A model generated the notes under the pieces. It made no database searches, was not told where the DNA came from, and saw nothing but the letters and a program-made list of their open reading frames with translations. This document shows, piece after piece, positions 1 through 57,914 of a DNA stretch of 64,000 bases. Within the stretch, counting starts at the first letter, position 1; every line of letters starts with the position of its first letter. The stretch comes from an uncultured virus (IMG/VR IMGVR_UViG_3300026479_000007) (taxonomy: Duplodnaviria > Heunggongvirae > Uroviricota > Caudoviricetes), in the IMG/VR virus record IMGVR_UViG_3300026479_000007, positions 1 to 64,000 of that record; one strand, 5' to 3'. A program made the position numbers and the translations under genes.

Positions 1-88
1 CATTTTCATAAAAATAAACTATAAATTTCTTATCATTATATTCATCTTCAACTGTAAAGTTTCCAATAAATTCTCCTAAATTTTTCAT
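1..88 (-). CDS. 5' part of a hypothetical protein (MKNLGEFIGNFTVEDEY...), runs off the window
   Basis: ATG at 88, open to position 1, preceded by a Bacteroidota-type promoter. Confidence 0.6.
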   Translation of the reverse strand, partial: MKNLGEFIGNFTVEDEYNDKKFIVYFYEN

Positions 89-104
89 ATATATATATTT
101 TTCA

Positions 105-136
105 CAAATATAAGTATTTTTTTATTTTTAAGCAAA
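105..136 (-). promoter_or_regulatory. Bacteroidota housekeeping-sigma promoter TTTG-N20-TATATTTG
   Basis: Matches the -33 TTTG / -7 TAnnTTTG consensus, just upstream of the ATG at 88. Confidence 0.7.
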
Positions 137-227
137 TTTAAAATAGTTTTTAACAAAACGATTTTTTCTTTTTTGTTTATATTTATAGTTATTAGAATAA
201 ATAATAAATTTAAAAAAAATAAGAAAA

Positions 228-1331
228 ATGAAAATTAGCAAACAAGAACTTATAGATATGATTAGAGCGGAAGCTAAAAATATCAAAAGTGCTATGATTC
301 AAGAATCTGATGCTGTTACTGATTCTATTGATGTATTTGACGTTGATATGAATTCAAATGATGAGTTAGGTGATTCTGAAAAAGCTTTAACTTACAAAGA
401 CACTTCTAAAAAAGTTGAAAAAGAAGGAGAAGAACAAAAAATGCCAAAAATGAACTCTCAAGATGATAAAGGAGGTTCTGATGAGAAATCTGCTGTAGCA
501 GTTAAAGTTGATGCTGGAGCTAAAAAAGGAGGTGATAGTCATACTGCTGGTCAAGCAAAAGCTAATTTCACTTCTAAAAAAGACAATCAAGGTACTGAAG
601 CTTCTGGCCCTTTTGATGAAAGAATTAATGATTTAAAAATGAATTCAGAAGATAAATTGGTAGACGAAAAAGCTAAAACTTATGTGGCAGCTGGAGAGAG
701 TAAAGGAGGTAAAACTCACACTTCTGGTCAAGCAAAAGCTGATGTTCATGAAAGAATGCCTGAAGAAGATGCAAAAGAACCAACAGAAAGAATTGCTGCT
801 GGAATAGAAATTGATGGTAGTAACATCGACTTAAAAGAAACTTATACTAAAAAAGAGTTAAAAAACTTAATTTTAACTGAAGCGAAAAAAGCAGTTGTAA
901 ACTATAAAGAAAATTTAGTTAAAACTGAAAAAACTAAGCAATTAATGGAAGAATTATCTTTAATTAAAGAGAGTCTTGAAGAATATGGAGAATCTTTAGA
1001 GATTGAGGAGGGGTTGCTTGGTAAAGTTAAATATGCAATGACTAGTGGGTATCCAAAAATTGAGAAATTAGTATCTGAATTAGATAAAGCCAAAGAAAAA
1101 AACCCTGAAGGCTATAAAAAAGTTGAAGCTATTTTAGATAGATTTTCTGATGGTGAAATCAAAAAAATTAAACCAATGCAATCAGATGATTCTTTCCCTT
1201 TTACAAAAGAAAACTTTATGGCTTTAGCTGGATTCCACAACTTTAACATTACTGTTATTAGACCTGTTGGAGATACTCTTCCTTTTAAAGTAAATACTGG
1301 TGTAGGTAAAGTTACAGGACATTCTAGATAA
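228..1331 (+). CDS. Acidic internal head / prohead-core-like protein with amphipathic N-terminal tag and internal repeats
   Basis: MKISKQELIDMIRAE start, second tag copy TKKELKNLILTE, repeats MNS.D...AG..KGG..HT.GQAKA, many I/L-x-E sites. Confidence 0.5.
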   Translation: MKISKQELIDMIRAEAKNIKSAMIQESDAVTDSIDVFDVDMNSNDELGDSEKALTYKDTSKKVEKEGEEQKMPKMNSQDDKGGSDEKSAVAVKVDAGAKKGGDSHTAGQAKANFTSKKDNQGTEASGPFDERINDLKMNSEDKLVDEKAKTYVAAGESKGGKTHTSGQAKADVHERMPEEDAKEPTERIAAGIEIDGSNIDLKETYTKKELKNLILTEAKKAVVNYKENLVKTEKTKQLMEELSLIKESLEEYGESLEIEEGLLGKVKYAMTSGYPKIEKLVSELDKAKEKNPEGYKKVEAILDRFSDGEIKKIKPMQSDDSFPFTKENFMALAGFHNFNITVIRPVGDTLPFKVNTGVGKVTGHSR

Positions 1332-3815: not shown

Positions 3816-4214
3816 TTATTTTAAGATTTCTTTAGCTACTTGTGATACTAATTTATTATCAGCTTTGCCCTTATAACTTTTGTTGAATTCACCCATAATT
3901 TGTCCTAAATTATTCATCCCATTTTCTTTTAGATTAATAATAATATTTCTAATTTCATCTTCAGACATCATTTTAGGCATATAAGGAGATAGGTATTCTA
4001 ATTCTTTTTTTGAATTTTCATCACCATTTTGAATTAATGATTTTTCTAATCTCTTTAAAATAACTAAAACGTTTTTATCTATAGATTCAATCCCTCTAGC
4101 TTCTTGCAATTGTATTTCACCTTTAATTAATCCAAGGAAGTTTTTTTTGTCCATTTCCTTATTTTTAAATGCTACCATAAAGTCCGAATTGATTTTTTCT
4201 TTTAATGTTTTCAT
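3816..4214 (-). CDS. yqeY: GatB/YqeY domain protein (start likely ATG at 4214)
   Basis: LKEKINSDFMVAFK...YMPKMMSEDEI...GQIMG...KGKADNKLV; a TATATTTG promoter at 4232-4239 overlaps the upstream GTG. Confidence 0.85.
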   Translation of the reverse strand: MKTLKEKINSDFMVAFKNKEMDKKNFLGLIKGEIQLQEARGIESIDKNVLVILKRLEKSLIQNGDENSKKELEYLSPYMPKMMSEDEIRNIIINLKENGMNNLGQIMGEFNKSYKGKADNKLVSQVAKEILK

Positions 4215-4302
4215 AAGTTTATTTTTTTTCACAAATATAATATTTTTATATAATAAATAAAAAAAAAAATATATTTATATAATATAAAAACTTCCCAGAA
4301 AA

Positions 4303-5962: not shown

Positions 5963-6036
5963 GGGGGATTAGCTCAGATGGCAAGAGCGTCTGCCTTGCA
6001 CGCAGAAGGTCATCGGTTCGACTCCGATATCCTCCA
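5963..6036 (+). tRNA. tRNA-Ala(UGC)
   Basis: Full cloverleaf, anticodon TGC, G3:U70 pair, A73, no encoded CCA. Confidence 0.97.
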
Positions 6037-6065
6037 CTTTGAACAAAACTATTTTTCGTTAACAC

Positions 6066-19082: not shown

Positions 19083-21593
19083 ATGAATATAAGAAATATA
19101 ATTAGAGAGACTTTTAGTGTTTTATTTGAAGAAGAATATTTTTCAAATAAACTTTCAGATGATATAAAAGAAAATTCTGCGGAATACATAGGAAGACAAG
19201 TTACTTGGTATGGAGATTCTTATCAAATGATTGTTGTAAATAAAAATCAAGTTGAAGGAATGTGGGGGAATATATATGATTCTGATAAAATGGATTTTTT
19301 AACTAACTTAATTAAGAACAGTGAAGAAAATGTAGAAATAGAATGTTCTTATGCTTATGGGAATGTAGTAAACTTTCAAGAAATAAAAGAACATCAAATA
19401 GCTAGTTTTAATAATAGATTTGAGGTAGATTATGATGGTGTTAAAGAGCCTTATAGTGTAGGGGATAGTGACTTAGATGAATATATAGGGAATGAAACAT
19501 ATATCCCAGATGAAAATTACACAAGTTTAACTGAAGTAGATGATTTTTTTATTGAAAACAAATTTAGCTTAATAGAAAATATTAAATCTTTAGAACAATT
19601 AAAAAAAGAGTTTTATGATTTAGAAAGAGATTCTGATGGTGAAGATTTTAAAGAGGAGGAAGATTATAATACATTTAATGAATTTATAGATATTGAAACC
19701 AAAATTAAAAAAGCTATCGAAAATCAAGATGGAGATTTAGGTTCATTTACAGTTCAACTTAGAGATGGTCACCATAGAATTATGTCTGCAATAGCTGCTG
19801 GTGAAGAAAAGGTATGTGTAAATTTAGTTAAAGAAGATATAGAAAAATATAAAGGTTATTATACTAAGGTTGATACTAGTTATACAAATGAAAGCACTTT
19901 AAAAGAATCTAATTTAGAAAGTTTTTATAAAGAGCAAAACATAAACCCAGATGATTTATCTTTTGTTGGTTCTGGTGACTTTGGAAATGCTTATATAATA
20001 GATGAAAGTAGAGTTTTAAAAATAACATCATCTAAAAGCGAGTTTGAGTTAGCAAAAAAATTAGTTAACAAAAACATACCAGCCCTAAAAGGATTTGTTG
20101 ATTTTTATTTTGCGGATGTAATAGATGGTAAGTGTTATATTATAATGGAAAGACTGGAGGAGGATTATAGTATAGAAGATATGTTTTACCAACTTGAAGA
20201 CTTATTAAGCGAACAAGGTTTACCTATTCAATATTTAGATAATTTGGATACTTCTGAATTAGATTTAGATGAAGAAATGATTAAATTTATTGATGATATT
20301 GATGACATAAATAGAGCATATAGATATTTAGGCATTGAAGCAAGCGATATAAAACCTGATAATTTAGGGGTTGATAGTGAAGGGAAAATTAAAGCATTTG
20401 ATATTGATGATAAATCTATAAATGAAAATGATTTAATGAAAGAGGTTACTGAAAACGAAAGTTTTATTGTTTATCATGGTTCTCCACATAAAATTAAAAA
20501 ATTTACAGATGAATTTGTTGGTGCAGAAGAAGCAACAGACCAAGAAGGTCCTGGGGTTTATTTTACAACTTCATACGAAGAAGCTTTAGGTTATGCTGAT
20601 GGAGGTTATGTTTATGAAGTTAGGGTTTCACCAAAAATTTTATTTGATGAATCTGAGGAAAAAGATATTAATAGAGATTTATTAATTCAATTAGTTAAAA
20701 TGTCACCAAGACTAGAAATAACTACTAGTAACTGGTCTCCAAATATTGAAACTGGAATTGAAATGATGGTTGATTCAGCTTATGAATATAATGACAATGA
20801 AAAAGATGTGTTACTTCAAATATGGATTGAAGCTTATAGGTATGATAGTGTTGAATTTGTAAGAAATTGTGTTAAATTGGGAATTGATGGAGTCATTGTA
20901 AATAGAGAAAACTCTAAACATATTATAATATACAACCCTAACGTAATAGAATTAAGAGAAATTGAAGATATTAAAAAAAATCAATTATCAGAAATTAGAA
21001 AATTAATAAGGGGAGAATTACAAAGTGTACTTTCTAATAATGAAAAAATTTTAACAGAATCTTCTAACCCTTTTTCAGCTAGTAACACAAGAGTTCCATT
21101 TAATTTAGATTTAATGACTCAAGCAATAACACAAGGTAGAGAAGTTGGAATTTTATACAAAGGTGATGAAATGAAAGCTCCTTCAGGTAAATATAGATTG
21201 ATTTATCCTGTAGCTATGGGAATTTCAAGAGCTGGTAATCGTGTCATAAGAGCTGTACACACAATAGGTCAATCAGAATCTGAAGCTAAAAGCACCAACA
21301 TTCGTAGCGCAGAAGCTAAGAATGTTTGGCGACTTTTTAAAGCTGATAACATTAGAGGAATGTGGTTTACTGGAAATTTCTTCAATTTTAATCCAGATAA
21401 ATACAACCCTAATGATAAAGGAATGAATACAGTAGAAGTAAATTTTGACTTGTCAAAAGCAAAAAAATACCAAGATGAATTAATTCAAAAACAAAAAGAA
21501 GAAGGTGATTTTAAATCTAAAGTCAGAAGATTTAGAGAATCTGGTGCTAGAGACTTAGAACAACCTTATGATAATCCAGAAACAAACGATTAA
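19083..21593 (+). CDS. Polyvalent protein: ParB-like, kinase-like, ADP-ribosyltransferase-like and WYL-like domains
   Basis: DGHHR; GSGDFG..VLKIT..DIKPDN..AFD; VYHGS..GVYFT; REVGILY..RLIYP..WRLFK. Confidence 0.7.
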   Translation: MNIRNIIRETFSVLFEEEYFSNKLSDDIKENSAEYIGRQVTWYGDSYQMIVVNKNQVEGMWGNIYDSDKMDFLTNLIKNSEENVEIECSYAYGNVVNFQEIKEHQIASFNNRFEVDYDGVKEPYSVGDSDLDEYIGNETYIPDENYTSLTEVDDFFIENKFSLIENIKSLEQLKKEFYDLERDSDGEDFKEEEDYNTFNEFIDIETKIKKAIENQDGDLGSFTVQLRDGHHRIMSAIAAGEEKVCVNLVKEDIEKYKGYYTKVDTSYTNESTLKESNLESFYKEQNINPDDLSFVGSGDFGNAYIIDESRVLKITSSKSEFELAKKLVNKNIPALKGFVDFYFADVIDGKCYIIMERLEEDYSIEDMFYQLEDLLSEQGLPIQYLDNLDTSELDLDEEMIKFIDDIDDINRAYRYLGIEASDIKPDNLGVDSEGKIKAFDIDDKSINENDLMKEVTENESFIVYHGSPHKIKKFTDEFVGAEEATDQEGPGVYFTTSYEEALGYADGGYVYEVRVSPKILFDESEEKDINRDLLIQLVKMSPRLEITTSNWSPNIETGIEMMVDSAYEYNDNEKDVLLQIWIEAYRYDSVEFVRNCVKLGIDGVIVNRENSKHIIIYNPNVIELREIEDIKKNQLSEIRKLIRGELQSVLSNNEKILTESSNPFSASNTRVPFNLDLMTQAITQGREVGILYKGDEMKAPSGKYRLIYPVAMGISRAGNRVIRAVHTIGQSESEAKSTNIRSAEAKNVWRLFKADNIRGMWFTGNFFNFNPDKYNPNDKGMNTVEVNFDLSKAKKYQDELIQKQKEEGDFKSKVRRFRESGARDLEQPYDNPETND

Positions 21594-45919: not shown

Positions 45920-48142
45920 ATGGCACAAGTAGTAGGAGGTGTACAAGCACCTAAATATATTTACTTACCTAACGCTACGGTAAGATATAATAAATTAAAT
46001 TATAATTATCCAATCGATACAACACCATACAAAACTTATACAAGACCAGCGGATTGGTTGGATTTACCAGCGGTAAATGAAGGTGATGAAGTAATTTACA
46101 TGTTGGTTGCAATTTATGAAAATAACCCAAATAGTATCGTATTCTCAGTTAGAGGTGATTATACTGTTGATTGGGGTGATGGAAATATTATTAATTATGA
46201 CCAAAATAGTACAAGTGTGAATGCTGTTGATGGTAAAACAGGTTATTCAATAAATTGGGATGACATTGACCCATCAACATTAACATCAGAAGGATATAGA
46301 CAAGCAATTGTTAAAATCACACCACAAGTTCCTGGTGGTTTAACTCATTTCAATAATCAATCATTCTATCAATCAATGCTTAATGGTGTATATGGTGGTG
46401 TAGGTCTTTCAGGTCTTTTGGATATGAAAATGGCTGGACAAAACATCAATTATTTAAAAGTTGGTGGTGGTAATAACCCAAAATTCGAACAATTTGAGTT
46501 TGTTGGTTCAAATAGTATTGTGGCTAGTAACAGTATGTTTAATGGTTCAACTATTAAAAAAATAGTTTCTTTAGATATGTCTAATATCACTAATGGTTAT
46601 TATATGTTTAGACAATGTACTAAATTAATAGAGTTACCAGAAGATATGGATTTAACAAGTTTAACAAATGTATATGACATGTTTGCGTATTGTAGTTCAT
46701 TAGAAAAATTACCAACATTAGATTTGACAAGTTGTACAAGTATGCAAAATATGTTTAAACATTCTTCTCAGATAAGAGAAATTAATTTAATAAATACATC
46801 CAATGTAACAAATGGACAAGATGCTTTTTACGGCTGTTCAAACTTAGTTAAAATAACTGGTTTAGATACAAGTTCAATGACAATAACACATCAAATGTTT
46901 TATGGTTGTAATAAATTAATGGATTTACCTGAAATTAACTTACAAAGTTGTACAAGGACTTCAAGTATGTTTTATGCGTGTAATTCAATCATAAGATTTG
47001 ATAATGATATAATTAATACATCAGGTGTAACGAATATGCAAGGTATGTTTGGTCATTGTTCAAATTTAATAGAAATACCTAAAGATTTTGATACATCTAG
47101 TGCAACAAATATGACTTATATGTTTAATAAATGTAGTTCTTTAAGAAGAATACCTTTATTAAATACTTCAAATATAACTAGTGGTTATTATATGTTTAGA
47201 CAAGCAGATATTGAAGAAATTCCTGATTTAGATTTCTCTAATATAACACACGCTGGAGAGATGTTTTCGCATTGTTATAAATTAAAAACGTTACCAACAT
47301 TAGACTTATCTAGTTGTACAAGTATGCACAATATGTTTAAAAATTCTTCTCAGATAAGAGAAATTAATTTAATAAATACATCCAATGTAACAAGTGGACA
47401 AGATGCTTTTTACGGCTGTTCAAACTTAGTTAAAATAACTGGTTTAGATACAAGTTCAATGACAATAACACATCAAATGTTTTATGGTTGTAATAAATTA
47501 ATGGATTTACCTAAAATTAACTTACAAAGTTGTACAAGGACTTCAAGTATGTTTTATGGGTGTAATTCAATCATAAGATTTGATAATGATATAATTAATA
47601 CATCAGGTGTAACGAATATGCAAAGTATGTTTGGTTATTGTTCAAATTTAATAGAAATACCATCTGATTTTAATACAGATAGTGCAACAAATATGCTTTA
47701 TATGTTTCAAACAACATCTAATTTAAAAACAATACCATCTATTAATACTTCAAATATAACTAGTGGTTATTATATGTTTAGACAATCAGGTATTGAAGAA
47801 ATTCCTGATTTGGATACTTCCAATATTACAGATAGTAGAGAAATGTTTGGTTATTGTTCAAGACTTAGAAAAATAGGTAGTTTGGATTTTTCATCTGTAA
47901 CTAACGCAACAAATATGTTCAGAAATAACTATGGTATTGGTAAGTCTGATATATATGGTTTAACTAAATCACATACTTATCTTCATGGTAAGTTATCTAG
48001 AACTGAATTAGTTAACATTTTCAACAACTTGGGTAACGCAACATCTCAAACAATAGATGTTAGGTATAACCCTGGTACAGCTGATTTAACTCCTGAAGAT
48101 ATTGCTATAGCAACATCAAAAGGATGGACTGTAACGGTTTAA
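45920..48142 (+). CDS. BspA-like (DUF285) leucine-rich-repeat adhesin, copy 1
   Basis: DTS..TNM..MF..CS.L repeats, VDWGDG N-domain, IATSKGWTV C-terminus. Confidence 0.85.
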   Translation: MAQVVGGVQAPKYIYLPNATVRYNKLNYNYPIDTTPYKTYTRPADWLDLPAVNEGDEVIYMLVAIYENNPNSIVFSVRGDYTVDWGDGNIINYDQNSTSVNAVDGKTGYSINWDDIDPSTLTSEGYRQAIVKITPQVPGGLTHFNNQSFYQSMLNGVYGGVGLSGLLDMKMAGQNINYLKVGGGNNPKFEQFEFVGSNSIVASNSMFNGSTIKKIVSLDMSNITNGYYMFRQCTKLIELPEDMDLTSLTNVYDMFAYCSSLEKLPTLDLTSCTSMQNMFKHSSQIREINLINTSNVTNGQDAFYGCSNLVKITGLDTSSMTITHQMFYGCNKLMDLPEINLQSCTRTSSMFYACNSIIRFDNDIINTSGVTNMQGMFGHCSNLIEIPKDFDTSSATNMTYMFNKCSSLRRIPLLNTSNITSGYYMFRQADIEEIPDLDFSNITHAGEMFSHCYKLKTLPTLDLSSCTSMHNMFKNSSQIREINLINTSNVTSGQDAFYGCSNLVKITGLDTSSMTITHQMFYGCNKLMDLPKINLQSCTRTSSMFYGCNSIIRFDNDIINTSGVTNMQSMFGYCSNLIEIPSDFNTDSATNMLYMFQTTSNLKTIPSINTSNITSGYYMFRQSGIEEIPDLDTSNITDSREMFGYCSRLRKIGSLDFSSVTNATNMFRNNYGIGKSDIYGLTKSHTYLHGKLSRTELVNIFNNLGNATSQTIDVRYNPGTADLTPEDIAIATSKGWTVTV
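46730..47661 (+). repeat. Direct repeat 46730-47079 / 47312-47661 (582-bp period)
   Basis: 350-bp copies with 7 differences, all non-synonymous. Confidence 0.9.
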
Positions 48143-48156
48143 TAATTTAATAATTA

Positions 48157-48184
48157 AAGAGGGGGTATTCTCCCTCTCTTTTTT
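48157..48184 (+). terminator. Intrinsic terminator
   Basis: AGAGGGGG-TATT-CTCCCTCT followed by a T tract. Confidence 0.75.
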
Positions 48185-48230
48185 CATATTTATAAAAAAA
48201 ATAACAAATTAAAAAATAAAAAAAAGAAAA

Positions 48231-48461
48231 ATGGAATTAAAACTAGGATTTTACAAAGAAACCGAAGAAGGTTGGTATTATGCACCGAATGCGGTGTATA
48301 ATGGTGATTATTCTTTATTAAAAGAACAAAAAGATACATACAACTATCCAGTTGATGGATGGAAATGGTATGATGATGAACCTGAAGGATTTATTGATAT
48401 ATTCAATAAACCTGAAGAGGAAGAAGAAGATAATATTTCAGAAGAAGAAACTACATTATAA
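48231..48461 (+). CDS. Small acidic partner of BspA-like protein, copy 2
   Basis: Paralog of 45666..45890. Confidence 0.75.
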   Translation: MELKLGFYKETEEGWYYAPNAVYNGDYSLLKEQKDTYNYPVDGWKWYDDEPEGFIDIFNKPEEEEEDNISEEETTL

Positions 48462-48501
48462 TAAAAAAACAATAACAAATTAATTAAAAAAATAAAAAAT
48501 T

Positions 48502-50700
48502 ATGGCACAAGTAGTAGGAGGGGTTCAAGCCCCAAAATATATGTACTTACCGAATGCTACGGTAAGATATAATAAATTAAATTATACATATGAAAAAACA
48601 ACAACATTTAATGATACTTATGTGAGACCAAGTGATTGGTTAACGTTGCCTGAAGTTAATAATGGTGATGAAGTTGTTTACATGTTGGTTAGTGTATATG
48701 AAAACACACCAAGTTATGTTGGTTTTGCAGTTAATGATGATTTTACTGTTGATTGGGGTGATGGAAACATTATTAATTATGATGGTATATCAAAAACAAG
48801 TGCGACTCACAGAGTAAATCATGTATTGAATTGGGAAGACCTTGATGAGTCAACATTAACATCTGAAGGATATAGACAAGTAATTGTTAAAATAACACCA
48901 CAAGTACCAGGTGCATTAACTAAATTTGATTTAGCTTACGCTTATCAATCTGAATTAAACGTAGCTACTTATTCTAATATTTTGGATGTTAAAATAGCTG
49001 GTCAAAATATAAGTATTTTTAGACCTGGGAGTGCGTACCATAAAAAAATGGAACAAATCGAATTTATTGGTTCACATAGTATAACTAATGCGACTAGTCT
49101 TTTTGTTAATTCAAAAATTAAAAAATTGGTATCATTTGATATGACAAACATTACAAATGGTACTAGTATGTTTAATGGGTGTTCTAATTTAATAGAGTTA
49201 CCATCTGATTTTGACACTTCAAACCTAACGGAATGTGGTAGTATGTTTAAAAATTGTTCTTCATTAGAAAAAATATCGTTAGATTTAACTTCTTGTACAA
49301 ATACAGTACAAATTTTTGAGGGTAGTAATAAGATAAAAGAAGCTAATTTACAAAATACTGGTAATGTGACAAACATGAATAAAATGTTTAAAGGTTGTAG
49401 TAGTTTAGAAACTGTAACAGGTTTAGATACTTCATCTGCAACAAATTTAAGTAATTTATTTGAAAGTTGCTCTAGTTTAATTGATGTACCACAAATAGAT
49501 TTTACTTCTTGTACTACAGCATACTATATGTTTGTTCGTTGTTCTTCTATTGTTAGATTTGAAAATGGTTTAATTAACACATCTGGTGTTTCAAATATGG
49601 GTTATATGTTTCATAGTTGTAATTCGTTATTAGAAATACCTAAAGATTTTGATACTAGTGGTTGTACAAATATGTATGGTATGTTTGGTTATTGTTCATC
49701 TTTAAGAAAAATACATTTATTAAACACAGACAGTGTTACAAATATGCAATATATGTTTTTTAATTCAGGTATATTAGAATTACCTGAAGGGTTTGATACT
49801 TCAAACTCAACGAAATGTGATTATATGTTTAAAGATTGTTCTTCATTAGAAAAAATATCATTGGATTTAACTTCTTGTACAAGTACAATACAAATGTTTG
49901 ATGGTAGTAATAAGATAAAAGAAGTTAATTTACAAAACACTGGTAATGTGACTACTATGAATAAAATGTTTTTAAATTGTAGTAGTTTAGAAACTGTTAC
50001 TGGTTTAGATACTTCATCTGCAACAGTTTTAAGTAATGTTTTCCAAGGATGTAGTAATTTAAAAAACTTACCATTATTAGATTTACAAAATTGTACTACA
50101 ACATTCTATATGTTTATATATTGTAGTTCATTAGAAGGATTTCCAAATGGTTTAATTAATACTTCAGGTGTTTCAAATATGAGTTATATGTTCCATAGTT
50201 GTTCATCATTAAGAGAATTACCATCAGACTTTAACACAGATAGTGCAAATATATACGCAATGTTTATAGGTACAGGTTTAAAAACTATACCACAAATCAA
50301 TACAAGTAATTCACAATCAAATTTACATTATTTATTTAATTCTAGTAAAATTGAAATTATTCCTGATTTGGATTTTTCTTTAACGACAAATGTGACTTAT
50401 ACTTTTGACAGGTGTATAGAACTAAGAAAAATTGGTAGTTTAGATATGTCTAACGTAACAAGTGCTAACCTTATGTTAAGAAGTAATTTTGAATTATCTG
50501 AATCTAATATTTTTGGTTTAACTAAATCACATAGTTATAATACAAACAAATTGTCTAGATTGGCTTTAATAAACATATTTAACAACCTAGGTAACGCAAC
50601 ATCTCAAACAATAGATGTTAGGTATAACCCTGGTACAGCTGATTTAACTCCTGAAGATATTGCTATAGCAACATCAAAAGGATGGACTGTAACGGTTTAA
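48502..50700 (+). CDS. BspA-like LRR adhesin, copy 2
   Basis: Same architecture; last ~110 bp identical to copy 1. Confidence 0.85.
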   Translation: MAQVVGGVQAPKYMYLPNATVRYNKLNYTYEKTTTFNDTYVRPSDWLTLPEVNNGDEVVYMLVSVYENTPSYVGFAVNDDFTVDWGDGNIINYDGISKTSATHRVNHVLNWEDLDESTLTSEGYRQVIVKITPQVPGALTKFDLAYAYQSELNVATYSNILDVKIAGQNISIFRPGSAYHKKMEQIEFIGSHSITNATSLFVNSKIKKLVSFDMTNITNGTSMFNGCSNLIELPSDFDTSNLTECGSMFKNCSSLEKISLDLTSCTNTVQIFEGSNKIKEANLQNTGNVTNMNKMFKGCSSLETVTGLDTSSATNLSNLFESCSSLIDVPQIDFTSCTTAYYMFVRCSSIVRFENGLINTSGVSNMGYMFHSCNSLLEIPKDFDTSGCTNMYGMFGYCSSLRKIHLLNTDSVTNMQYMFFNSGILELPEGFDTSNSTKCDYMFKDCSSLEKISLDLTSCTSTIQMFDGSNKIKEVNLQNTGNVTTMNKMFLNCSSLETVTGLDTSSATVLSNVFQGCSNLKNLPLLDLQNCTTTFYMFIYCSSLEGFPNGLINTSGVSNMSYMFHSCSSLRELPSDFNTDSANIYAMFIGTGLKTIPQINTSNSQSNLHYLFNSSKIEIIPDLDFSLTTNVTYTFDRCIELRKIGSLDMSNVTSANLMLRSNFELSESNIFGLTKSHSYNTNKLSRLALINIFNNLGNATSQTIDVRYNPGTADLTPEDIAIATSKGWTVTV

Positions 50701-50712
50701 TAAAAAAAAATG

Positions 50713-50737
50713 AAGGGAGGTGAATATCTCCCTTTTT
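50713..50737 (+). terminator. Intrinsic terminator
   Basis: AAGGGAGGT-GAAT-ATCTCCCTTTTT. Confidence 0.75.
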
Positions 50738-50765
50738 ATATGATATTTATATAAAAAAATAAATT

Positions 50766-50987
50766 ATGATAATAGTAACAAAAACAGAAATGAATGAAAA
50801 ATGGTGGATTGCAACAAATGAAGATAATTCAATTGTTCACTACGGAAAAACTGACCCACCACAACAAACCGAAACAGGTTTACCGAATCACACAATATTC
50901 GATGATGAAACATCTTGGAAAACAGAGTTATTAAATGTTTATGGAATTGATGTTGATAACAATGAAGAAGAAGAAATAACAGAATAA
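50766..50987 (+). CDS. Small acidic partner protein
   Basis: 73-aa acidic ORF immediately before the third adhesin. Confidence 0.6.
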   Translation: MIIVTKTEMNEKWWIATNEDNSIVHYGKTDPPQQTETGLPNHTIFDDETSWKTELLNVYGIDVDNNEEEEITE

Positions 50988-50989
50988 TT

Positions 50990-52423
50990 ATGGCAGCACA
51001 GATAAGAGTTGGAATCAAAGATGGTTCCTTGGAAAAAAGAAAATTTATATTTACAATAAACACTGAAAATGCTGGTAGTGCGAGTGATACATTTATTTTA
51101 GGTGCTGGAAATTTAGGTGTTTATAATGCAACGATTGAGTGGGGTGATGGTACAACATCAACAATTACATCATATAATGATACTGATTTAACTCACGTCT
51201 ATTCAACACCAGGAATTTATACAATTAAAGTCTTAGGTAATTTACCTTGGCCTAAATTTAATGGTACTGATAGAGAAAAATTGATGTCAGTTAATCAGTG
51301 GGGTTATAATGAATGGAGAAGTATGGGTACTTCTTTCCAAGGGTGTAGTAATTTAGAAATTTATGCCACAGATATTCCAAATACATCATTAGTTAATACA
51401 TTAGCAAATGCTTTTAATGGTTGTACATCATTAACCACAATGTCTTTAGCTGGTTGGGATTTAACTTCTTGTACTTCTTTTGGTTGGGGTTATACTGGTG
51501 GTTTCCAATCTTGTACATCATTAACTTCAATAGATTTTACTGGATGTAAATTAAACACAACTTCAAATGTTCAATTTAGAGAGGTATTTTATAATTGTAC
51601 CTCATTAACTACAGTAACAGGGTTTAACACACTTAACACTTCTAAAGTATATACTATGTACCAAACTTTTAGAGGTTGTACATCATTAACATCTTTAGAT
51701 ATGTCAGGAATGGATTTATCTAATTGTAGTGATTTCAGACAAATGTTCTACTATAACATATCATTGACTTCTGTTGATGTAAGTGGAGTTACTTTTAGAA
51801 CACTAGGTGTTAATTTCTCAAGTACCTTCCAAGCTACACCTAATTTAACCACAATAACTGGTATTGAAGATATAACAGTACCATTCACTAATATTATTGG
51901 TATGTTCCGTGGTTGTGGTATATCAGGCGATTTAGATTTAACAGGATGGGATGTTTCTCAAGTCACTTCAACATCTAATACCTTCTCACCCACAGTTAAT
52001 TTAACATCATTAAATGTAAGTGGTTGGGATTTAAGTAATTGTACAACATTTGGTAATAGATACGCTGGTATGTTTAATGGGTGTGGTGCTGATTATATTG
52101 ATGTTACAGGTATTACAATAAGAACATCTGGACCAGTTATTATGTATGAACCATTTTATGGTTTAGGTGTGTGTGATGTTGTTGGATTAGACACTTGGGA
52201 TATATCTACTGTTTCTAATATGAAAGATTTCCTAAGAGGTTCAACTATAACAACAACTGAATATGATAAGTTATTAGTTGCATGGAACGCACTTAACCCC
52301 GTAAGTGGTTTGTCTGTTAACTTTGGTACGTCCAAATACACAATAGGAAGTCCAGCTGAAGCAGCAAAATCAAACTTAATTTTAAGTGATTTATGGACAA
52401 TCACCGATGGTGGTGGAATTTAA
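50990..52423 (+). CDS. PKD-like plus BspA-like LRR adhesin, copy 3
   Basis: IEWGDG...HVYSTPG.YTI, QWG...W.SM...F.GC, WDVSQVT repeats, WTITDGG end. Confidence 0.85.
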   Translation: MAAQIRVGIKDGSLEKRKFIFTINTENAGSASDTFILGAGNLGVYNATIEWGDGTTSTITSYNDTDLTHVYSTPGIYTIKVLGNLPWPKFNGTDREKLMSVNQWGYNEWRSMGTSFQGCSNLEIYATDIPNTSLVNTLANAFNGCTSLTTMSLAGWDLTSCTSFGWGYTGGFQSCTSLTSIDFTGCKLNTTSNVQFREVFYNCTSLTTVTGFNTLNTSKVYTMYQTFRGCTSLTSLDMSGMDLSNCSDFRQMFYYNISLTSVDVSGVTFRTLGVNFSSTFQATPNLTTITGIEDITVPFTNIIGMFRGCGISGDLDLTGWDVSQVTSTSNTFSPTVNLTSLNVSGWDLSNCTTFGNRYAGMFNGCGADYIDVTGITIRTSGPVIMYEPFYGLGVCDVVGLDTWDISTVSNMKDFLRGSTITTTEYDKLLVAWNALNPVSGLSVNFGTSKYTIGSPAEAAKSNLILSDLWTITDGGGI

Positions 52424-52809: not shown

Positions 52810-53469
52810 ATGGCACAAACAAGAGTGGGGGTTAGAAGACCTGGTATATGGGATGGATTATTGGCTTATTATAGAGCTGATGGAACACCAATAGACCAAA
52901 CAGGGAATGGACACGATTTAACATTAATTAATGGAACAACATATGACACAGGTAAAATTAATCAAGGATTTAAGTTTGATGGTGTTAATGATTATGTACA
53001 ATACACAGGTGATGTTGGTATTACTGGAGATTTTACGGTAAGTGGATGGGTGTATAAAAATAATACAGGTACGGCCTGTTTTTTTCAAACACCTAATTTC
53101 GGTTCAAATGGGTCTATGGGTTTTACTTTCCAATTTACATCAATAATTTTATACGCATTCAAAACAAATGGGGGTTATTTATCACAAAGTTTAACTATAG
53201 GTAATAATGTTTGGAGACATGTTGCTTTCGCTTGGAATGAGTCAACTAAATTATTAAATATGTATATGGATGGTAATTTAATTTCTGCTGGTACAACAAC
53301 ATTCACTGATTGTACATCTTTGGGTTTTGTAAATGGTTTTATATTAAGTAGGAGAACATCTAGTCAATTCTTAAATGGTAATATGGATGAAATAGGTATT
53401 TGGAACAGAGAACTAACACCAACAGAAGTATCACAACTATACAATTCAGGAAACGGAAAACAAAAATAA
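52810..53469 (+). CDS. LamG / concanavalin-A-like lectin domain protein
   Basis: FDGVNDYV, FTVSGWV, WRHVAF, MDEIGIWNREL. Confidence 0.88.
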   Translation: MAQTRVGVRRPGIWDGLLAYYRADGTPIDQTGNGHDLTLINGTTYDTGKINQGFKFDGVNDYVQYTGDVGITGDFTVSGWVYKNNTGTACFFQTPNFGSNGSMGFTFQFTSIILYAFKTNGGYLSQSLTIGNNVWRHVAFAWNESTKLLNMYMDGNLISAGTTTFTDCTSLGFVNGFILSRRTSSQFLNGNMDEIGIWNRELTPTEVSQLYNSGNGKQK

Positions 53470-53492
53470 TATAAATTAAAAAACAAAATATT

Positions 53493-54179
53493 ATGGCACA
53501 AACAAGAGTAGGGGTGAGACCAAGACAAACATCAAATATAATAACAGATGGGTTAGTGTTACATTTAGATGCAGGAAATACATTATCATATCCAGGTACA
53601 GGTACTATTTGGAATGATTTAACATCAAATAATAATGATGGTACATTAACCAATGGTGTAACATACTTAACTGATAATGGAGGAATTGTGTCATTTGATG
53701 GTGTGAATGATTATGTTTCAATATCAAATTCAGATTCTTTAAATACCATCTCTGTTTCAGTTTCTATGTGGGTTAAATTCAATTTATTATCTAATAATAA
53801 AGTTTTATTAAGTAAGGGTTTAGGTATTAACTCTAGAACATACTGGTTTTATGAGAATAGTGGTATACAGTTTTTTTATGGTACTGCAACCCCTAAAATA
53901 TTAAAAACAGATTTAGAAGATGGTAATTGGCACAATATAGTTGGTACTTATAATGGTACATCTACAGTATCACTATATCATAATGGAGTTTTGTTTGGGT
54001 CTTCTAATTCTAGTAGTCAAGCACAAACAACACAAGGTATATCTATTAATAGTTATCCAGGTGGTAGTTATGTTGCTAGTGATAAAAAAATTGGTAATAC
54101 TTTAATTTACAATAGAGCGTTAACAGATAGTGAAGTATTACAAAATTATAACACAACCAAAGGAAGATTTGGATTATAA
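53493..54179 (+). CDS. LamG / concanavalin-A-like lectin domain protein
   Basis: GLVLHLDA...SYPG.GT.W.DL, FDGVNDYV, WHNIVGT, IYNRAL...EV.QNY. Confidence 0.88.
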   Translation: MAQTRVGVRPRQTSNIITDGLVLHLDAGNTLSYPGTGTIWNDLTSNNNDGTLTNGVTYLTDNGGIVSFDGVNDYVSISNSDSLNTISVSVSMWVKFNLLSNNKVLLSKGLGINSRTYWFYENSGIQFFYGTATPKILKTDLEDGNWHNIVGTYNGTSTVSLYHNGVLFGSSNSSSQAQTTQGISINSYPGGSYVASDKKIGNTLIYNRALTDSEVLQNYNTTKGRFGL

Positions 54180-54264: not shown

Positions 54265-54501
54265 ATGGAAAAAGATATTTATTATAAGATAACAAGAGAT
54301 TTATATTTAATTTCGGACCCATCTTATGATATAGATGAAGTAGGTGTTGATAACCCAGTTTTAGAAGAATGTGAGTTATATAATAATGGTTACGAACACG
54401 TTATAACAAAGTGGAGAAAAAAACTAAATATTTCATTAGATGACTTGAAGAAATTTAACTCTGATATCTATAAAAACACAAAAAAACCAAGAATAGTATG
54501 A
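54265..54501 (+). CDS. Hypothetical protein
   Basis: 78-aa ORF coupled to the next gene. Confidence 0.5.
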   Translation: MEKDIYYKITRDLYLISDPSYDIDEVGVDNPVLEECELYNNGYEHVITKWRKKLNISLDDLKKFNSDIYKNTKKPRIV

Positions 54502-55718
54502 TGGATACAGAAAATATAAAAATAGGTATTACCATAGCATTAAACGATATAAAAGAATCAATGTGGACAAATGGGATGAAACTAAACATCCTTATGATGA
54601 TTAACCTATTAAAAAAATCAAAAAAGAATTATCAAATTTATTTATTGAATACGTTGGATATTGATTTAAATAACCCACCAAAACACTTCGATGGAATTAA
54701 TGTTTCGTTATTAAAAGATAAATACAGAGAAATGGATTTAATTATATCCATGGGAGCACAAATATCAAACGAAACAATTAAAGATTTTAAGAAACAAAAA
54801 CCAACCAATAAAGTTATTAATTATAAGTGTGGTAACAATTATGTTTTATTCATTGAAGAGATGTTATTTAAAGAAGGAAAGCCACATATTGTTGATGAAG
54901 GTGTTGATGAAGTTTGGTATGTGCCACAACAAGATTATAATAATAGTGGTTACTTTAAAACACTTTATAGAACAAACGCAATAAGTGTACCTTTCTTATG
55001 GGATAATAGTTTCTTGGATTCATCCCTAAACTCAATCAATAAATTAAGCAAAGAAGGAAAATATAAAAAAGACCATAGATACGACCCAACAAAAGAAAAG
55101 AAGGTTATTGGTATTATGGAACCAAACTTAAATATGGTTAAAACCGCTGTTATACCAACTTTAATTGCAGAAGAATCTTATCGTACAGAAATTGGTAAAA
55201 ATAAGATTGATAAGTTGATGATAACAAACGGAAAACACGAAAAAGGTGGTTTGGATAAAAATCCACCATTCATATCAATTATTAAAAGTTTGGACTTATA
55301 TAAGGACAAAAAAGTAACAATGGAACATAGATATCAAACTTCTTATGTTGTATCTCAGTTTTTGGATATTGTTGTTTCTCATCAAATTATGAACCCATTA
55401 AACTATCTTTATTTGGATGTTGCGTATATGGGTTATCCTGTATTACATAACGCACCAATGTGTAAAGATATAGGTTATTATTATGAAAACTCAGATTCAA
55501 GAAAAGGTGGTGAAATGTTAAACTGGATATTGGAAAACCACGATAAAAATCTGGAATACTATAAGGAACGTAATAAACAATCTTTATGGAGATATCATGT
55601 ATCAAACCCATTAATATCAAAAACATACGATAAATTAATCCATAATTTATTTAATGGTGGAAATAGTTCTGAATTAAAATACGACCCTACTACAAACAAC
55701 TATTTTAATTTGTTATAA
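54498..55718 (+). CDS. DUF2827-like protein (putative glycosyltransferase fold)
   Basis: W.NG...N, VPFLW, IMEPNLN.VK, VVSHQ..NPLNYLY.D....YP..HN. Confidence 0.7.
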   Translation: MMDTENIKIGITIALNDIKESMWTNGMKLNILMMINLLKKSKKNYQIYLLNTLDIDLNNPPKHFDGINVSLLKDKYREMDLIISMGAQISNETIKDFKKQKPTNKVINYKCGNNYVLFIEEMLFKEGKPHIVDEGVDEVWYVPQQDYNNSGYFKTLYRTNAISVPFLWDNSFLDSSLNSINKLSKEGKYKKDHRYDPTKEKKVIGIMEPNLNMVKTAVIPTLIAEESYRTEIGKNKIDKLMITNGKHEKGGLDKNPPFISIIKSLDLYKDKKVTMEHRYQTSYVVSQFLDIVVSHQIMNPLNYLYLDVAYMGYPVLHNAPMCKDIGYYYENSDSRKGGEMLNWILENHDKNLEYYKERNKQSLWRYHVSNPLISKTYDKLIHNLFNGGNSSELKYDPTTNNYFNLL

Positions 55719-55737
55719 TAAAAAAAATGGAGGGTTT

Positions 55738-56583
55738 TTAATCCTCCATTTCATCTAAATCAATTCCATGTGTATCAAACCACCATTCTTTTGGTTTGTC
55801 ACGATGTTTAATTTTAAGCCTTTCATATCTTACTTTAGCCTTTTCTTGTCTCTCAACCTCTTTTGTGAAGAATGGATGTTCAATACTACCACCACCCTTA
55901 TAAAGTTGCCTTAAAAGTCTCCTAAGCACGTATCCTTGTTTTTGTGGACCAGGTTTAAAACCAGCTTCAATAATCTTATTGATAGCATCACTCAATATAT
56001 CATTTTTTGTTAATTCGTTCTTACCATTAATAATATCATTAATTCTAGAGAATCCAAAACCAACATCAATAAACTTATCCATTGTATTTACGATATTACC
56101 AATTTCAACATCATCATGATAAAACTCGGTGCAATAACCACCCATTTCACCATCTGACCAAATACATTCACTATCTAATTTAATTGGTATTTTATGACGT
56201 TCATATAACCATTTCCAAGTATCAAATTTATCTGGGTGAATAGTAACATAATCAATCTTTATACCTAAGAAGTCTTTAATAAAATCCACCCAAAAATCAA
56301 CAGCCTCATTAAGTGTCATTTTACCGAAAGAAAACAAACCAATCATTCTAAAGTGTAACATATGGGTACCATCACCGATTTCTTCTAAATCATTTAACCT
56401 AATACAAGATTGTATATTTGCTATTGTGGTGTTATCAGGATTTTTAAATTTGTCTTTAAATTGTTGCATACCAGCTGGACAAAAAAGAGTTGTGTCATCA
56501 TAACTATTAACACTATCATCTAATTTAAAAGGGATTTCCTTTAAAAAACAAAAGTTTTCATAAAGTTTTATTAAATCTTTCAT
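55738..56583 (-). CDS. alaS: Minimal alanyl-tRNA-synthetase-like protein with no editing or C-Ala domain
   Basis: TLFCPAGMQQFK, QSCIR.NDL, F.MIGLFSF, GYCTE, EIGNIV, IDVGFG..R, GYVLRRLLR, FDTHG. Confidence 0.88.
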   Translation of the reverse strand: MKDLIKLYENFCFLKEIPFKLDDSVNSYDDTTLFCPAGMQQFKDKFKNPDNTTIANIQSCIRLNDLEEIGDGTHMLHFRMIGLFSFGKMTLNEAVDFWVDFIKDFLGIKIDYVTIHPDKFDTWKWLYERHKIPIKLDSECIWSDGEMGGYCTEFYHDDVEIGNIVNTMDKFIDVGFGFSRINDIINGKNELTKNDILSDAINKIIEAGFKPGPQKQGYVLRRLLRQLYKGGGSIEHPFFTKEVERQEKAKVRYERLKIKHRDKPKEWWFDTHGIDLDEMED

Positions 56584-56589
56584 ATTTTT

Positions 56590-57150
56590 TTATTCTTTTA
56601 TTAAAAAATGTATATCTGGTTTTTTATACCCAGTTTTAAATCTATCTGCACTAAGTTCCTCAGTTTCAATAAAATGTGGTTTTTTTCTACAAATAAATAA
56701 ACAACCTTTCGATAAGTTATCAATAATCTTTTTTGTAATATCATGTGACATAGCGGTGTTATCTACATAAATAACGGTAGCATCACTAAAATTATTATCA
56801 AAGAAATCACCCTCAATAAAAGAAATAATTTTATTGTCTTTACAATGTTTTTCTTTTAAATCATTTGCTCCCTTTATTCTTTCTTTTGATAACTCAATAC
56901 CACAAGATTTTTTAGGGTTATATTGTAAAGCAACATGTATTACCATTTTTCCTAACCCACAACCTAAGTCATAAAATATTGTATCTTGATTGAAGTGTTT
57001 TTTGAATTGGTTTACAATAGCATTTGTGGATTGTTTTGTTACTTCACCATATGTTGCTGGGTATTCTTTTTTAAATTCTGTTTTATTTTGATACTCTAAA
57101 TATGGTGTTTGGTTATATATTTCATTTAAAATTTGTTCTAAATTTTCCAT
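56590..57150 (-). CDS. DOT1-like SAM-dependent methyltransferase
   Basis: TYGE, FYDLGCGLGK, GIELS..R, FIEGDF, ATVIY.DN. Confidence 0.8.
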   Translation of the reverse strand: MENLEQILNEIYNQTPYLEYQNKTEFKKEYPATYGEVTKQSTNAIVNQFKKHFNQDTIFYDLGCGLGKMVIHVALQYNPKKSCGIELSKERIKGANDLKEKHCKDNKIISFIEGDFFDNNFSDATVIYVDNTAMSHDITKKIIDNLSKGCLFICRKKPHFIETEELSADRFKTGYKKPDIHFLIKE

Positions 57151-57176: not shown

Positions 57177-57914
57177 TTAATTATATTCATTTTCTTGATT
57201 TATATTTTTTTTGTTTCTAAGATTGTTTGAAGCAAACTTTGAACTAATTAAACCTATAAACAACATTAAAATCATTATTGATGGTGCTGATTTGCCTGAA
57301 ACAGTTAAATTATAATTCCATAACCCATGATAACCAATACCACACATTAAACCAATCATCACATACACAAAAAACCTAATTTTTTGTTTACTAGACATAA
57401 CAATATCAAATACAGACCTAGTGCTATATTTATTTATTTTAATTTTACTTAAAGATATCCAATAACCTGTAAACATACCGAATATCATATGAGCAAATGT
57501 TGATGTAAAGTTTCTTATAAATAATATTTTTTCGCCAAACCTACATAAGTATTGTACATTTTCAATCATAGCAAAGCCTAGACCAACCATTCCCATATAA
57601 AACATTGTACCTATTGGGTGTTTTGATTTTTGTTTATCCATTATTTTATATATAATAAAATAAACTAATAATTTAGATATTTCTTCATGTGGTGCAACTT
57701 CGAAAAAGCAGAAAACAAATGGACTGGTTAATAAGTCTGATTTATAAGGTAATAGTAAATTAAATAACATCACTAAAGGTATAGATAAAATACCTCCAAT
57801 TAGATATTGTAATGATTTAGTCAAGCTGATAGATTTGTATGGTGATGTTAAATAGATTATTCCACTATAAACAACAGGTGGTAATACCACCATAATAAAA
57901 TTTAATAAAGCCAT
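57177..57914 (-). CDS. prsW: PrsW-family intramembrane glutamic protease
   Basis: EEISK, GLGFAMIEN, AH, HGLWN in a multi-TM protein. Confidence 0.9.
   Translation of the reverse strand: MALLNFIMVVLPPVVYSGIIYLTSPYKSISLTKSLQYLIGGILSIPLVMLFNLLLPYKSDLLTSPFVFCFFEVAPHEEISKLLVYFIIYKIMDKQKSKHPIGTMFYMGMVGLGFAMIENVQYLCRFGEKILFIRNFTSTFAHMIFGMFTGYWISLSKIKINKYSTRSVFDIVMSSKQKIRFFVYVMIGLMCGIGYHGLWNYNLTVSGKSAPSIMILMLFIGLISSKFASNNLRNKKNINQENEYN

Follow-up and report, generated by a model that had tools for sequence, protein, structure and literature searches.

How small can an alanyl-tRNA synthetase (AlaRS) become and still charge tRNA? Among synthetases, AlaRS is described as the one whose single prototype architecture is maintained throughout biology. 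The question is raised by a gene in a 64,000-nucleotide stretch of DNA (positions 1 to 64,000 of IMG/VR record IMGVR_UViG_3300026479_000007, an uncultured virus of the Caudoviricetes), hereafter referred to as the window. An intact, ATG-initiated open reading frame (ORF) at 55738-56583 on the minus strand encodes a protein of 281 residues. A first-pass annotation, made from the sequence alone, reported this ORF, its AlaRS motifs, the lack of editing and C-Ala domains, and a stop codon inside a hairpin, and all of these factual statements hold. Profile, pocket-residue and fold comparisons agree in making the protein a member of the AlaRS class II family, and alignment identifies the gene as a condensed AlaRS, in which a class II catalytic core is followed by a trimmed helical (tRNA-recognition) domain. 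The smallest AlaRS versions shown to charge tRNA have 442-461 residues (PMC10036535 and PMC11392972, each in part). The 281-aa form probably aminoacylates tRNA-Ala and, in doing so, makes do with much less protein than any AlaRS demonstrated to be active, and on balance we lean towards a functional, editing-free AlaRS that would recognize the acceptor stem only.

A condensed AlaRS with an invariant alanine pocket

The protein scores 74.8 bits with Pfam PF01411 (tRNA-synt_2c; E 6.8e-21), for which the cut-off is 30.3. This is its sole Pfam domain, and the C-terminus lies 11 residues past the DTHG motif. Against NCBIfam TIGR00344 (the alaS equivalog) it scores 83.3 bits, below the 457-bit cut-off, and it does not pass as a canonical full-length AlaRS. 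In the PDB its sequence matches the AlaRS catalytic fragments of A. aeolicus and E. coli (E 1.2e-14 to 3e-9). The source databases label the homologues simply "alanyl-tRNA synthetase", PHROGs has no separate family for the mini-AlaRS protein, and the collection of cultured and named phages holds one close match only, from an uncultured 635-kb phage (54.6% identity). No description of a family of the 281-aa type was found in the literature on mini-AlaRS, on AlaRS in phages and jumbo phages, or on rhizobial paralogues, supplements being outside the scope of that search.

In an alignment to residues 1-461 of Salmonella AlaRS, taken from a named record, motif 1, the motif-2 Arg, the FxMxGxFSF strand and the motif-3 Arg are retained, as is the alanine pocket with its Trp, Asn-x-Val and Asp-x-Gly. 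We take the E. coli names of the retained residues to be R69, W170, N212, D235 and G237, in a numbering that is one below the count from Met-1. Compared with the enterobacterial enzyme, the protein is without the GGKH loop, an insertion of ~22 residues after TEIFYD (the 187-208 insertion) and the β-hairpin that follows the Asn-x-Val strand, and its helical domain is ~90 residues shorter. The recognition domain is reduced from ~190 to ~100 residues, and the remnant of the helical domain consists of the helix GYVLRRLLR and the loop WWFDTHG. This loop aligns with LYDTYG, which places Asp270 at Asp400, while PGPQKQGY aligns with PSNENRGY and places Pro213 at Asn303; the by-eye alignments of the first-pass annotation, with the Asp kept and the Asn replaced by Pro, were correct on both counts. 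Asn303 and Asp400 are named as the pair that reads U70 and G3 (PMC11392972, in part).

The predicted structure leads to the same assignment. The AlphaFold2 model, built with 78 homologues, has a predicted local distance difference test score (pLDDT) of 88.5 and a predicted TM-score (pTM) of 0.80. Foldseek ranks AlaRS catalytic fragments first (1riq, E 3.8e-14, TM 0.69-0.75). With VIA-align, AlaRS fragments superimpose with Z scores of 23.9 and 23.8 and root-mean-square deviations (rmsd) of 4.0 and 4.1 over 280 aligned residues. The whole 281-residue model maps onto E. coli AlaRS 1..414 (Z 23.8, rmsd 4.1), and other class II enzymes reach a Z of at most 14.9. Profile alignment and structure prediction, which had been proposed as checks on the annotation, hence both return an AlaRS class II core.

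The condensed form is also the form in which the family occurs. A word-indexed search covered 1374 candidate proteins of 154-492 aa, of which 1018 reached E<=1e-3; the best 120 of these 1018 matches are 55-100% identical, and 115 of the 120 are 274-298 aa long. A length that varied among homologues had been named as the mark of a decaying fragment, and this is not what is seen. Among longer proteins nothing exceeds 80 bits, the best being 541-592-aa proteins that carry PF01411 and PF07973, and we therefore see no fused close relative. A profile search of 1.84 billion cluster representatives returned 65 matches at E<=1e-30. Matches to the full profile are ~280-330 aa long, a few reaching up to 403 aa with N-terminal extensions, and at or below ~125 bits the matches switch to AlaRS of 570-900 aa that align only to profile positions 2-240.

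An alignment of 78 sequences (A1) has 51 invariant columns. In a set of 125 sequences (55 viral and 70 bacterial), gathered independently from 154 loci after 16 partial or interrupted loci had been dropped and identical sequences merged, seven positions are identical in 125/125: the motif-2 Arg, the pocket Trp, Asn and Val, the DxG Asp and Gly, and the motif-3 Arg. The invariance of the pocket argues strongly that alanine would still be activated. The same data bear on the idea that the gene encodes a non-catalytic tRNA-binding or regulatory protein, or is a decaying gene fragment. A frame that is broken in one complete phage genome (G018, see below) would fit decay, but seven catalytic positions without a single substitution, a conserved length, the confidence of the predicted fold and inheritance within Rhizobiaceae as a clade of its own (see below) leave this idea with hardly any credibility.

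What the trimmed recognition domain would read

While the pocket bears on the amino acid, the remnant of the helical domain bears on the acceptor. The trimming spared mainly the two elements by which canonical AlaRS contacts G3:U70, i.e., the GYVLRR helix and the DT(H/Y)G loop, and this is the main argument for tRNA as the acceptor. These elements rank among the most conserved parts of mini-AlaRS; W267, G273 and R245 are invariant, and T271 is nearly so. Repurposed paralogues of aminoacyl-tRNA synthetases (aaRS), such as PoxA, AsnA and the amino acid:carrier protein ligases, typically show the reverse, the tRNA-reading part being lost.

The two positions that correspond to the G3:U70 readers are less uniform. 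Among the 125 sequences, the Asn-equivalent position is Asn in 85, Pro in 24, His in six, Gly in five, Ser in three and Tyr in two, and the Asp-equivalent position is Asp in 110, Glu in five, Asn in five, Ser in two, Ala in one and Gly in one, with one gap. A Pro in place of the Asn is the mark of the clade that includes the window's copy. The interpretation in the first-pass annotation had two parts. The first, that the protein is a minimal synthetase, is borne out by the conserved length and by an alanine/ATP site that is invariant throughout the set. The second, that the replacement of Asn by Pro relaxes the specificity, is not supported on that ground; Asn is the majority state of the family, Pro is a clade marker, and TuAlaRS, the mini-AlaRS of Tupanvirus, is still G3:U70-specific with a Pro at this site.

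TuAlaRS (461 aa; PMC10036535, in part) is like the phage form in being virus-encoded, in being without an editing or C-Ala domain, in having motifs 1-3, and in the Pro at the Asn site. It charges an acceptor-stem microhelix in the absence of these domains, a demonstration that the acceptor stem alone can suffice. Unlike the phage form, it has an intact tRNA-recognition domain, is 180 residues longer, and is related to the AlaRS of its amoebal host (same source, in part). The phage family is a clade of its own, of bacterial type, marked by large deletions within the protein, and it mostly retains the Asp that is missing from TuAlaRS. With its recognition domain cut, the 281-aa protein is not of the TuAlaRS type, which consists of intact catalytic and intact recognition domains only.

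The nearest longer relatives, at 80 bits, are the small-AlaRS of the Patescibacteria/DPANN type (P0143-P0160, 541-592 aa; P0145 is 27% identical, E 4e-29). Both small-AlaRS and the phage form are without the GGKH loop and the 187-208 insertion (bioRxiv 10.1101/2023.05.29.542759, in part). Small-AlaRS differ in keeping PF07973, the β-hairpin, the ADHIR helix and a long helical domain; the Asp position is Ser or Gln in the four that were aligned, and in the tree a branch of 1.08 on either side keeps the two groups apart. Lacking PF07973 and branching separately, the phage form does not share the catalytic, ATL and editing composition that defines small-AlaRS. The TuAlaRS precedent and the deletions held in common with the small-AlaRS of reduced-genome organisms make reading of the acceptor stem only plausible.

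The RNA that is charged could, in principle, differ from the usual one. The enzyme would then aminoacylate altered or wider targets, either acceptor helices independent of the G:U pair or, preferentially, tmRNA and tRNA-like RNAs. Transfer-messenger RNA is itself an AlaRS substrate. That the GGKH loop is deleted, along with much of the helical domain, would suit such a change, as would the variation of the Asn and Asp sites in several viral clades (His or Tyr plus Asn, and Pro plus Glu combinations), and the N. equitans AlaRS-α subunit alone charges minihelices, weakly, independent of G3:U70 (PMC11392972, in part). However, Asn and Asp are the majority states (85/125 and 110/125), TuAlaRS stays G3:U70-specific without either residue (PMC10036535, in part), and ARAGORN finds no tmRNA gene in the window or the genome.

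The phage tRNAs also speak against altered targets. All of the 24 related viral records carry tRNAs, from 1 to 68 each. Typing covered 19 regions of ten tRNA-poor records, leaving out some tRNAs of G001, G003, G009 and G015 and the 14 tRNA-rich records. A tRNA-Ala(UGC) is present in five of the ten, as often as tRNA-Arg(UCU), and also in the window's genome; these counts come from gene-bearing records only and are no measure of enrichment. G3:U70 and A73 are kept in 6/6 phage tRNA-Ala examined. Taken together, we consider altered RNA targets rather improbable.

Distribution, neighbours and the case for other functions

The family is encoded at 76 viral loci, including megaphage records of 437-608 kb, and at 78 loci in species-representative bacterial genomes, mostly of Rhizobium, Neorhizobium, Inquilinus, Phyllobacterium and Caulobacteraceae. 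The bacterial copies have a host-like GC content at third codon positions (GC3) and ordinary chromosomal neighbours (serA, pdxA, ABC transporters, zwf). A FastTree of 130 rows, with five small-AlaRS N-termini as its root, recovers the mini-AlaRS family as one clade (support 100), within which viral sequences form the deep and diverse branches. A single clade (support 97) contains 67 of the 70 bacterial rows together with three viral rows, and a 49-row Rhizobiaceae subclade (support 96) follows genus lines. This topology suggests exchange, in either direction, between phages and α-proteobacteria followed by vertical inheritance, with the reservation that search patterns bias the sample.

One bacterium appeared to depend on the mini gene as its sole AlaRS. 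In the Armatimonadota metagenome-assembled genome G028 (L143/L182) it is the only PF01411/TIGR00344 match. This candidate was rejected because the assembly also lacks ValRS and IleRS matches and is hence incomplete; of 30 relatives of this genome, 29 have a canonical AlaRS.

An enzyme this small might be one half of a pair. It could be a catalytic α-type subunit that relies on a second protein to bind tRNA or to edit, by analogy with GlyQ/GlyS or the α and β subunits of N. equitans AlaRS, the partner coming from the host (AlaX or host AlaRS) or being an unrecognized phage protein. Its size and fold indeed resemble those of GlyQ, the α subunit of bacterial GlyRS (~280-300 aa), with which it shares a homologous catalytic fold (Z 14.4-14.9; 171 residues aligned at Z 14.9). 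The match is limited to residues 1-222 at 10-15% identity, though, and the pocket residues of the phage protein are of the AlaRS type. AlaRS is the best match in both Pfam and fold searches, and no GlyQ or GlyS family occurs among the 127 ORFs scanned, so that the protein is not a GlyQ. N. equitans AlaRS-α is likewise a natural AlaRS piece without an editing domain that by itself weakly charges acceptor helices, but it corresponds to E. coli 368N and its Asp loop resides on the β subunit (PMC11392972, in part). The phage protein has the Asp-containing loop itself.

A separate editing or β subunit elsewhere in the genome, another check that had been suggested, was searched for, and none of a known kind was found. 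The editing domain PF07973 (tRNA_SAD) is absent from the 138-kb record of the window's virus, and Pfam scans of 127 ORFs of its genome detect no editing, GlyS-like or C-Ala domain. In the 24 related viral records, of which seven reach a completeness of 96% or more, PF01411 matches nothing but the mini gene (23 have the gene, and the 24th has a partial copy), tRNA_SAD is found in 0/24, and no β-like gene was found. The absence of both tRNA_SAD and a second PF01411 gene from these 24 records is the basis for concluding that no such subunit of a known kind exists there.

Gene neighbourhoods were compared by clustering and annotating 74 viral loci together with ~70 bacterial neighbourhoods, and in neither set is any neighbour gene conserved across clades. 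The commonest viral neighbours are UvsX-like RecA, RNase H, a DnaB-like helicase and ribonucleotide reductase (~20 loci, one T4-like clade). In the window's clade the neighbours are a J-domain protein and a methyltransferase, and in another viral clade a KTSC-domain gene and a dTDP-sugar epimerase. The KTSC-domain gene (74 aa, putatively RNA-binding) lies directly upstream in eight viral loci of one clade (L012, L014-L018, L066; e.g., L015:5625-5849). In two large phage records, short ORFs with similarity to a class II core (tRNA-synt_2b) adjoin mini-AlaRS (L068:6815-7300 and L040); these may represent another truncated synthetase or a gene in another genetic code. For the subunit model, the KTSC gene and the AlaX-like matches in the rhizobial genomes checked offer conceivable partners, whereas the window's genome has no KTSC domain and no neighbour is universal. 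We judge a partner-dependent subunit to be very unlikely, and the lack of a neighbour conserved across clades fits a self-sufficient enzyme.

Several observations weigh against an enzyme that charges tRNA through the acceptor stem. The protein falls ~160 residues short of every AlaRS piece with demonstrated tRNA charging and stops at a point that corresponds to ~residue 414, before E. coli 442; of the E. coli AlaRS fragments that cover the same region, 368N is inactive on tRNA, 442N is the stated minimum and 442N and 461N are active (PMC11392972, in part). The phage protein matches neither kind, as it reaches the Asp400 loop in 281 residues through the deletion of ~130 internal ones. Large parts of the helical domain, the β-hairpin after Asn-x-Val, and the loop that holds Lys73 in E. 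coli are gone, the Asn site is occupied by Pro in the window's copy, and the Asp is absent in 15/125 sequences. Four of five bacterial genomes checked also have a canonical AlaRS (an open frame of 890-924 aa); in those bacteria mini-AlaRS is redundant for bulk charging and may have another role. The link to tRNA-Ala is not obligatory, since record G021, rated 100% complete, has a single tRNA, for Arg, and hence the enzyme, if active on tRNA, must use host tRNA-Ala as well. In phage G018 (L074; 279 kb with direct terminal repeats and a completeness rating of 100%), TGA and TAA codons split the frame into pieces of 109-126 aa. This interruption makes the gene dispensable there, the copy being either a pseudogene or that of a recoded phage. 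Finally, the family is known here from its sequences and a predicted structure, from which its function is deduced.

Some of these points would be expected if the activated alanine went elsewhere, i.e., if the protein were an alanyl-adenylate-forming ligase that had been repurposed to serve something other than tRNA, for instance a carrier protein, a small molecule, or a precursor of cell-wall or DNA modification. Its size, below that of every AlaRS fragment for which transfer of alanine to tRNA is known (PMC11392972, in part), and the canonical AlaRS alongside it in bacteria fit such a ligase, and rhizobial paralogues that add Ala to carrier proteins exist (Table 1 of PMC9437257, in part). 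Other aaRS paralogues that consist of the catalytic core only provide a likeness, and glycosyltransferases or a methyltransferase adjoin mini-AlaRS in some phage clades. Yet the neighbourhoods compared above hold no conserved carrier-protein or partner gene, and neither an adjacent carrier-protein gene nor a biosynthetic cluster, the hallmarks of the amino acid:carrier protein ligases, is found at the viral or bacterial loci. In addition, the helical remnant coincides exactly with the acceptor-stem-reading part and is strongly constrained, and another acceptor gives no reason to keep it. We regard such a ligase as the main alternative, though an unlikely one.

From the observed homology, fold, residue conservation and family distribution we infer the catalytic steps and the identity of the acceptor for the editing-free AlaRS. 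The enzyme would bind alanine and ATP and form alanyl-adenylate in an unchanged AlaRS pocket, and would then transfer the alanine to A76. Without proofreading of its own, it would leave Ser- or Gly-tRNA-Ala to host factors. The full claim, which we make tentatively and at somewhat less than even confidence, is that of a self-sufficient AlaRS of ~280 residues that reads the G3:U70 helix with a recognition domain of ~100 residues, occurs widely in large phages, and was domesticated in Rhizobiaceae, where it would serve as a second AlaRS without proofreading.

The window's genome and implications

The virus record to which the window belongs has 138,334 bp and is rated 49% complete, and an identical copy of the gene is present on a 232.5-kb record rated 88% complete. 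The genome has a GC content of 24-30%, comes from seawater samples, and encodes T4-type gp23, gp20, gp25, sheath, prohead protease and terminase. On account of these structural and packaging genes, the source is a large T4-like myovirus from seawater.

Eight tRNAs are encoded. Among them is a tRNA-Ala(UGC) at 5963-6037 on the plus strand (ARAGORN), whose acceptor stem reads G3:U70 with A73 and which is the candidate substrate of mini-AlaRS. A YqeY/GatB-like domain protein is encoded at 3816-4232 on the minus strand (PF09424, E 5.6e-17; PHROG 1460, E 1.2e-17), as part of what the phage invests in translation. Both the tRNA-Ala with its G3:U70 pair and the YqeY gene had been placed correctly in the initial annotation. 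Elsewhere in the phage genome there is a full-length class I synthetase of the GlnRS type (534 aa; PF00749, PF03950 and PF20974) at G000:C1:105205-106809 on the minus strand (L180:5205-6809), adjoining a tRNA-Gln/Asp/Glu cluster (tRNAs at G000 107259-107486). The phage thus appears to carry its own Gln-charging set, consisting of GlnRS, tRNA-Gln and the YqeY gene.

Immediately upstream of the AlaRS gene and co-oriented with it is a gene for an S-adenosylmethionine methyltransferase with a DOT1-like fold (56590-57150, minus strand; PF08123, E 2.5e-15), the stop of which lies 6 nt before the AlaRS start. It also weakly matches the PHROG "tRNA methyltransferase" (E 4.7e-9), and its place upstream of the AlaRS gene is conserved in the window's own clade only. 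A PrsW-family membrane protease gene (57177-57914, minus strand; PF13367, E 1.4e-23) follows in the same orientation, 26 nt upstream of the methyltransferase gene, and from orientation and spacing possibly belongs to the AlaRS transcription unit.

At the other end of the gene, an intrinsic-terminator-like hairpin occupies 55720-55752 (minus strand; sequence reading and folding). Seven G/C-rich pairs are extended by A-U pairs and close a 9-nt loop that contains the stop codon, and a tract of eight U follows. The hairpin folds with -13 kcal/mol (z -4.4), and 0/200 shuffles are as stable. A consensus terminator scan reported no terminators; it missed this hairpin because its loop limit is 8 nt. 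A 600-nt contig from a metatranscriptome library, identical to window positions 55722-56321, stops inside the U tract, which is a weak hint only. Contigs of four RNA-library runs from three studies cover parts of the gene, and contigs cannot show transcription, strand or ends. A DUF2827 gene (54498-55718, plus strand; E 4.3e-94) converges on the AlaRS gene with 19 bp between the stop codons, and the hairpin may terminate transcription from either side, for the AlaRS and the DUF2827 genes alike.

Other genes concern the phage more generally. Three large DUF285/leucine-rich repeat (BspA-like) proteins are encoded at 45920-52423, followed by two LamG-domain proteins at 52810-54179; these are probably host-recognition structures. 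An 836-aa protein with an ART-PolyVal ADP-ribosyltransferase domain is encoded at 19083-21593. At G000:C1:82000-89200 (L179:545-7127), genes for adenylylsulfate (APS) kinase, a sulfotransferase, an FkbM methyltransferase and five glycosyltransferases are clustered, which suggests synthesis or alteration of a sulfated glycan by the phage.

In this T4-like jumbo phage, with a tRNA-Ala, a full GlnRS and seven other tRNAs, the role of mini-AlaRS would be to sustain the supply of Ala-tRNA during infection. If its activity is confirmed, the finding would be of high interest to the synthetase field. The size limit for tRNA recognition through the acceptor stem only would be lowered by ~160 residues, and a compact natural scaffold would become available to study or engineer G3:U70 recognition. 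Among natural aaRS for canonical amino acids the protein would be the smallest, and it would exemplify, in a living system, the "operational RNA code" enzyme; large phages would carry a proofreading-free route to Ala-tRNA. Moreover, in Rhizobium, Neorhizobium, Inquilinus and relatives the gene stably accompanies a canonical AlaRS, and one may ask what advantage a second AlaRS without editing brings to a bacterium.

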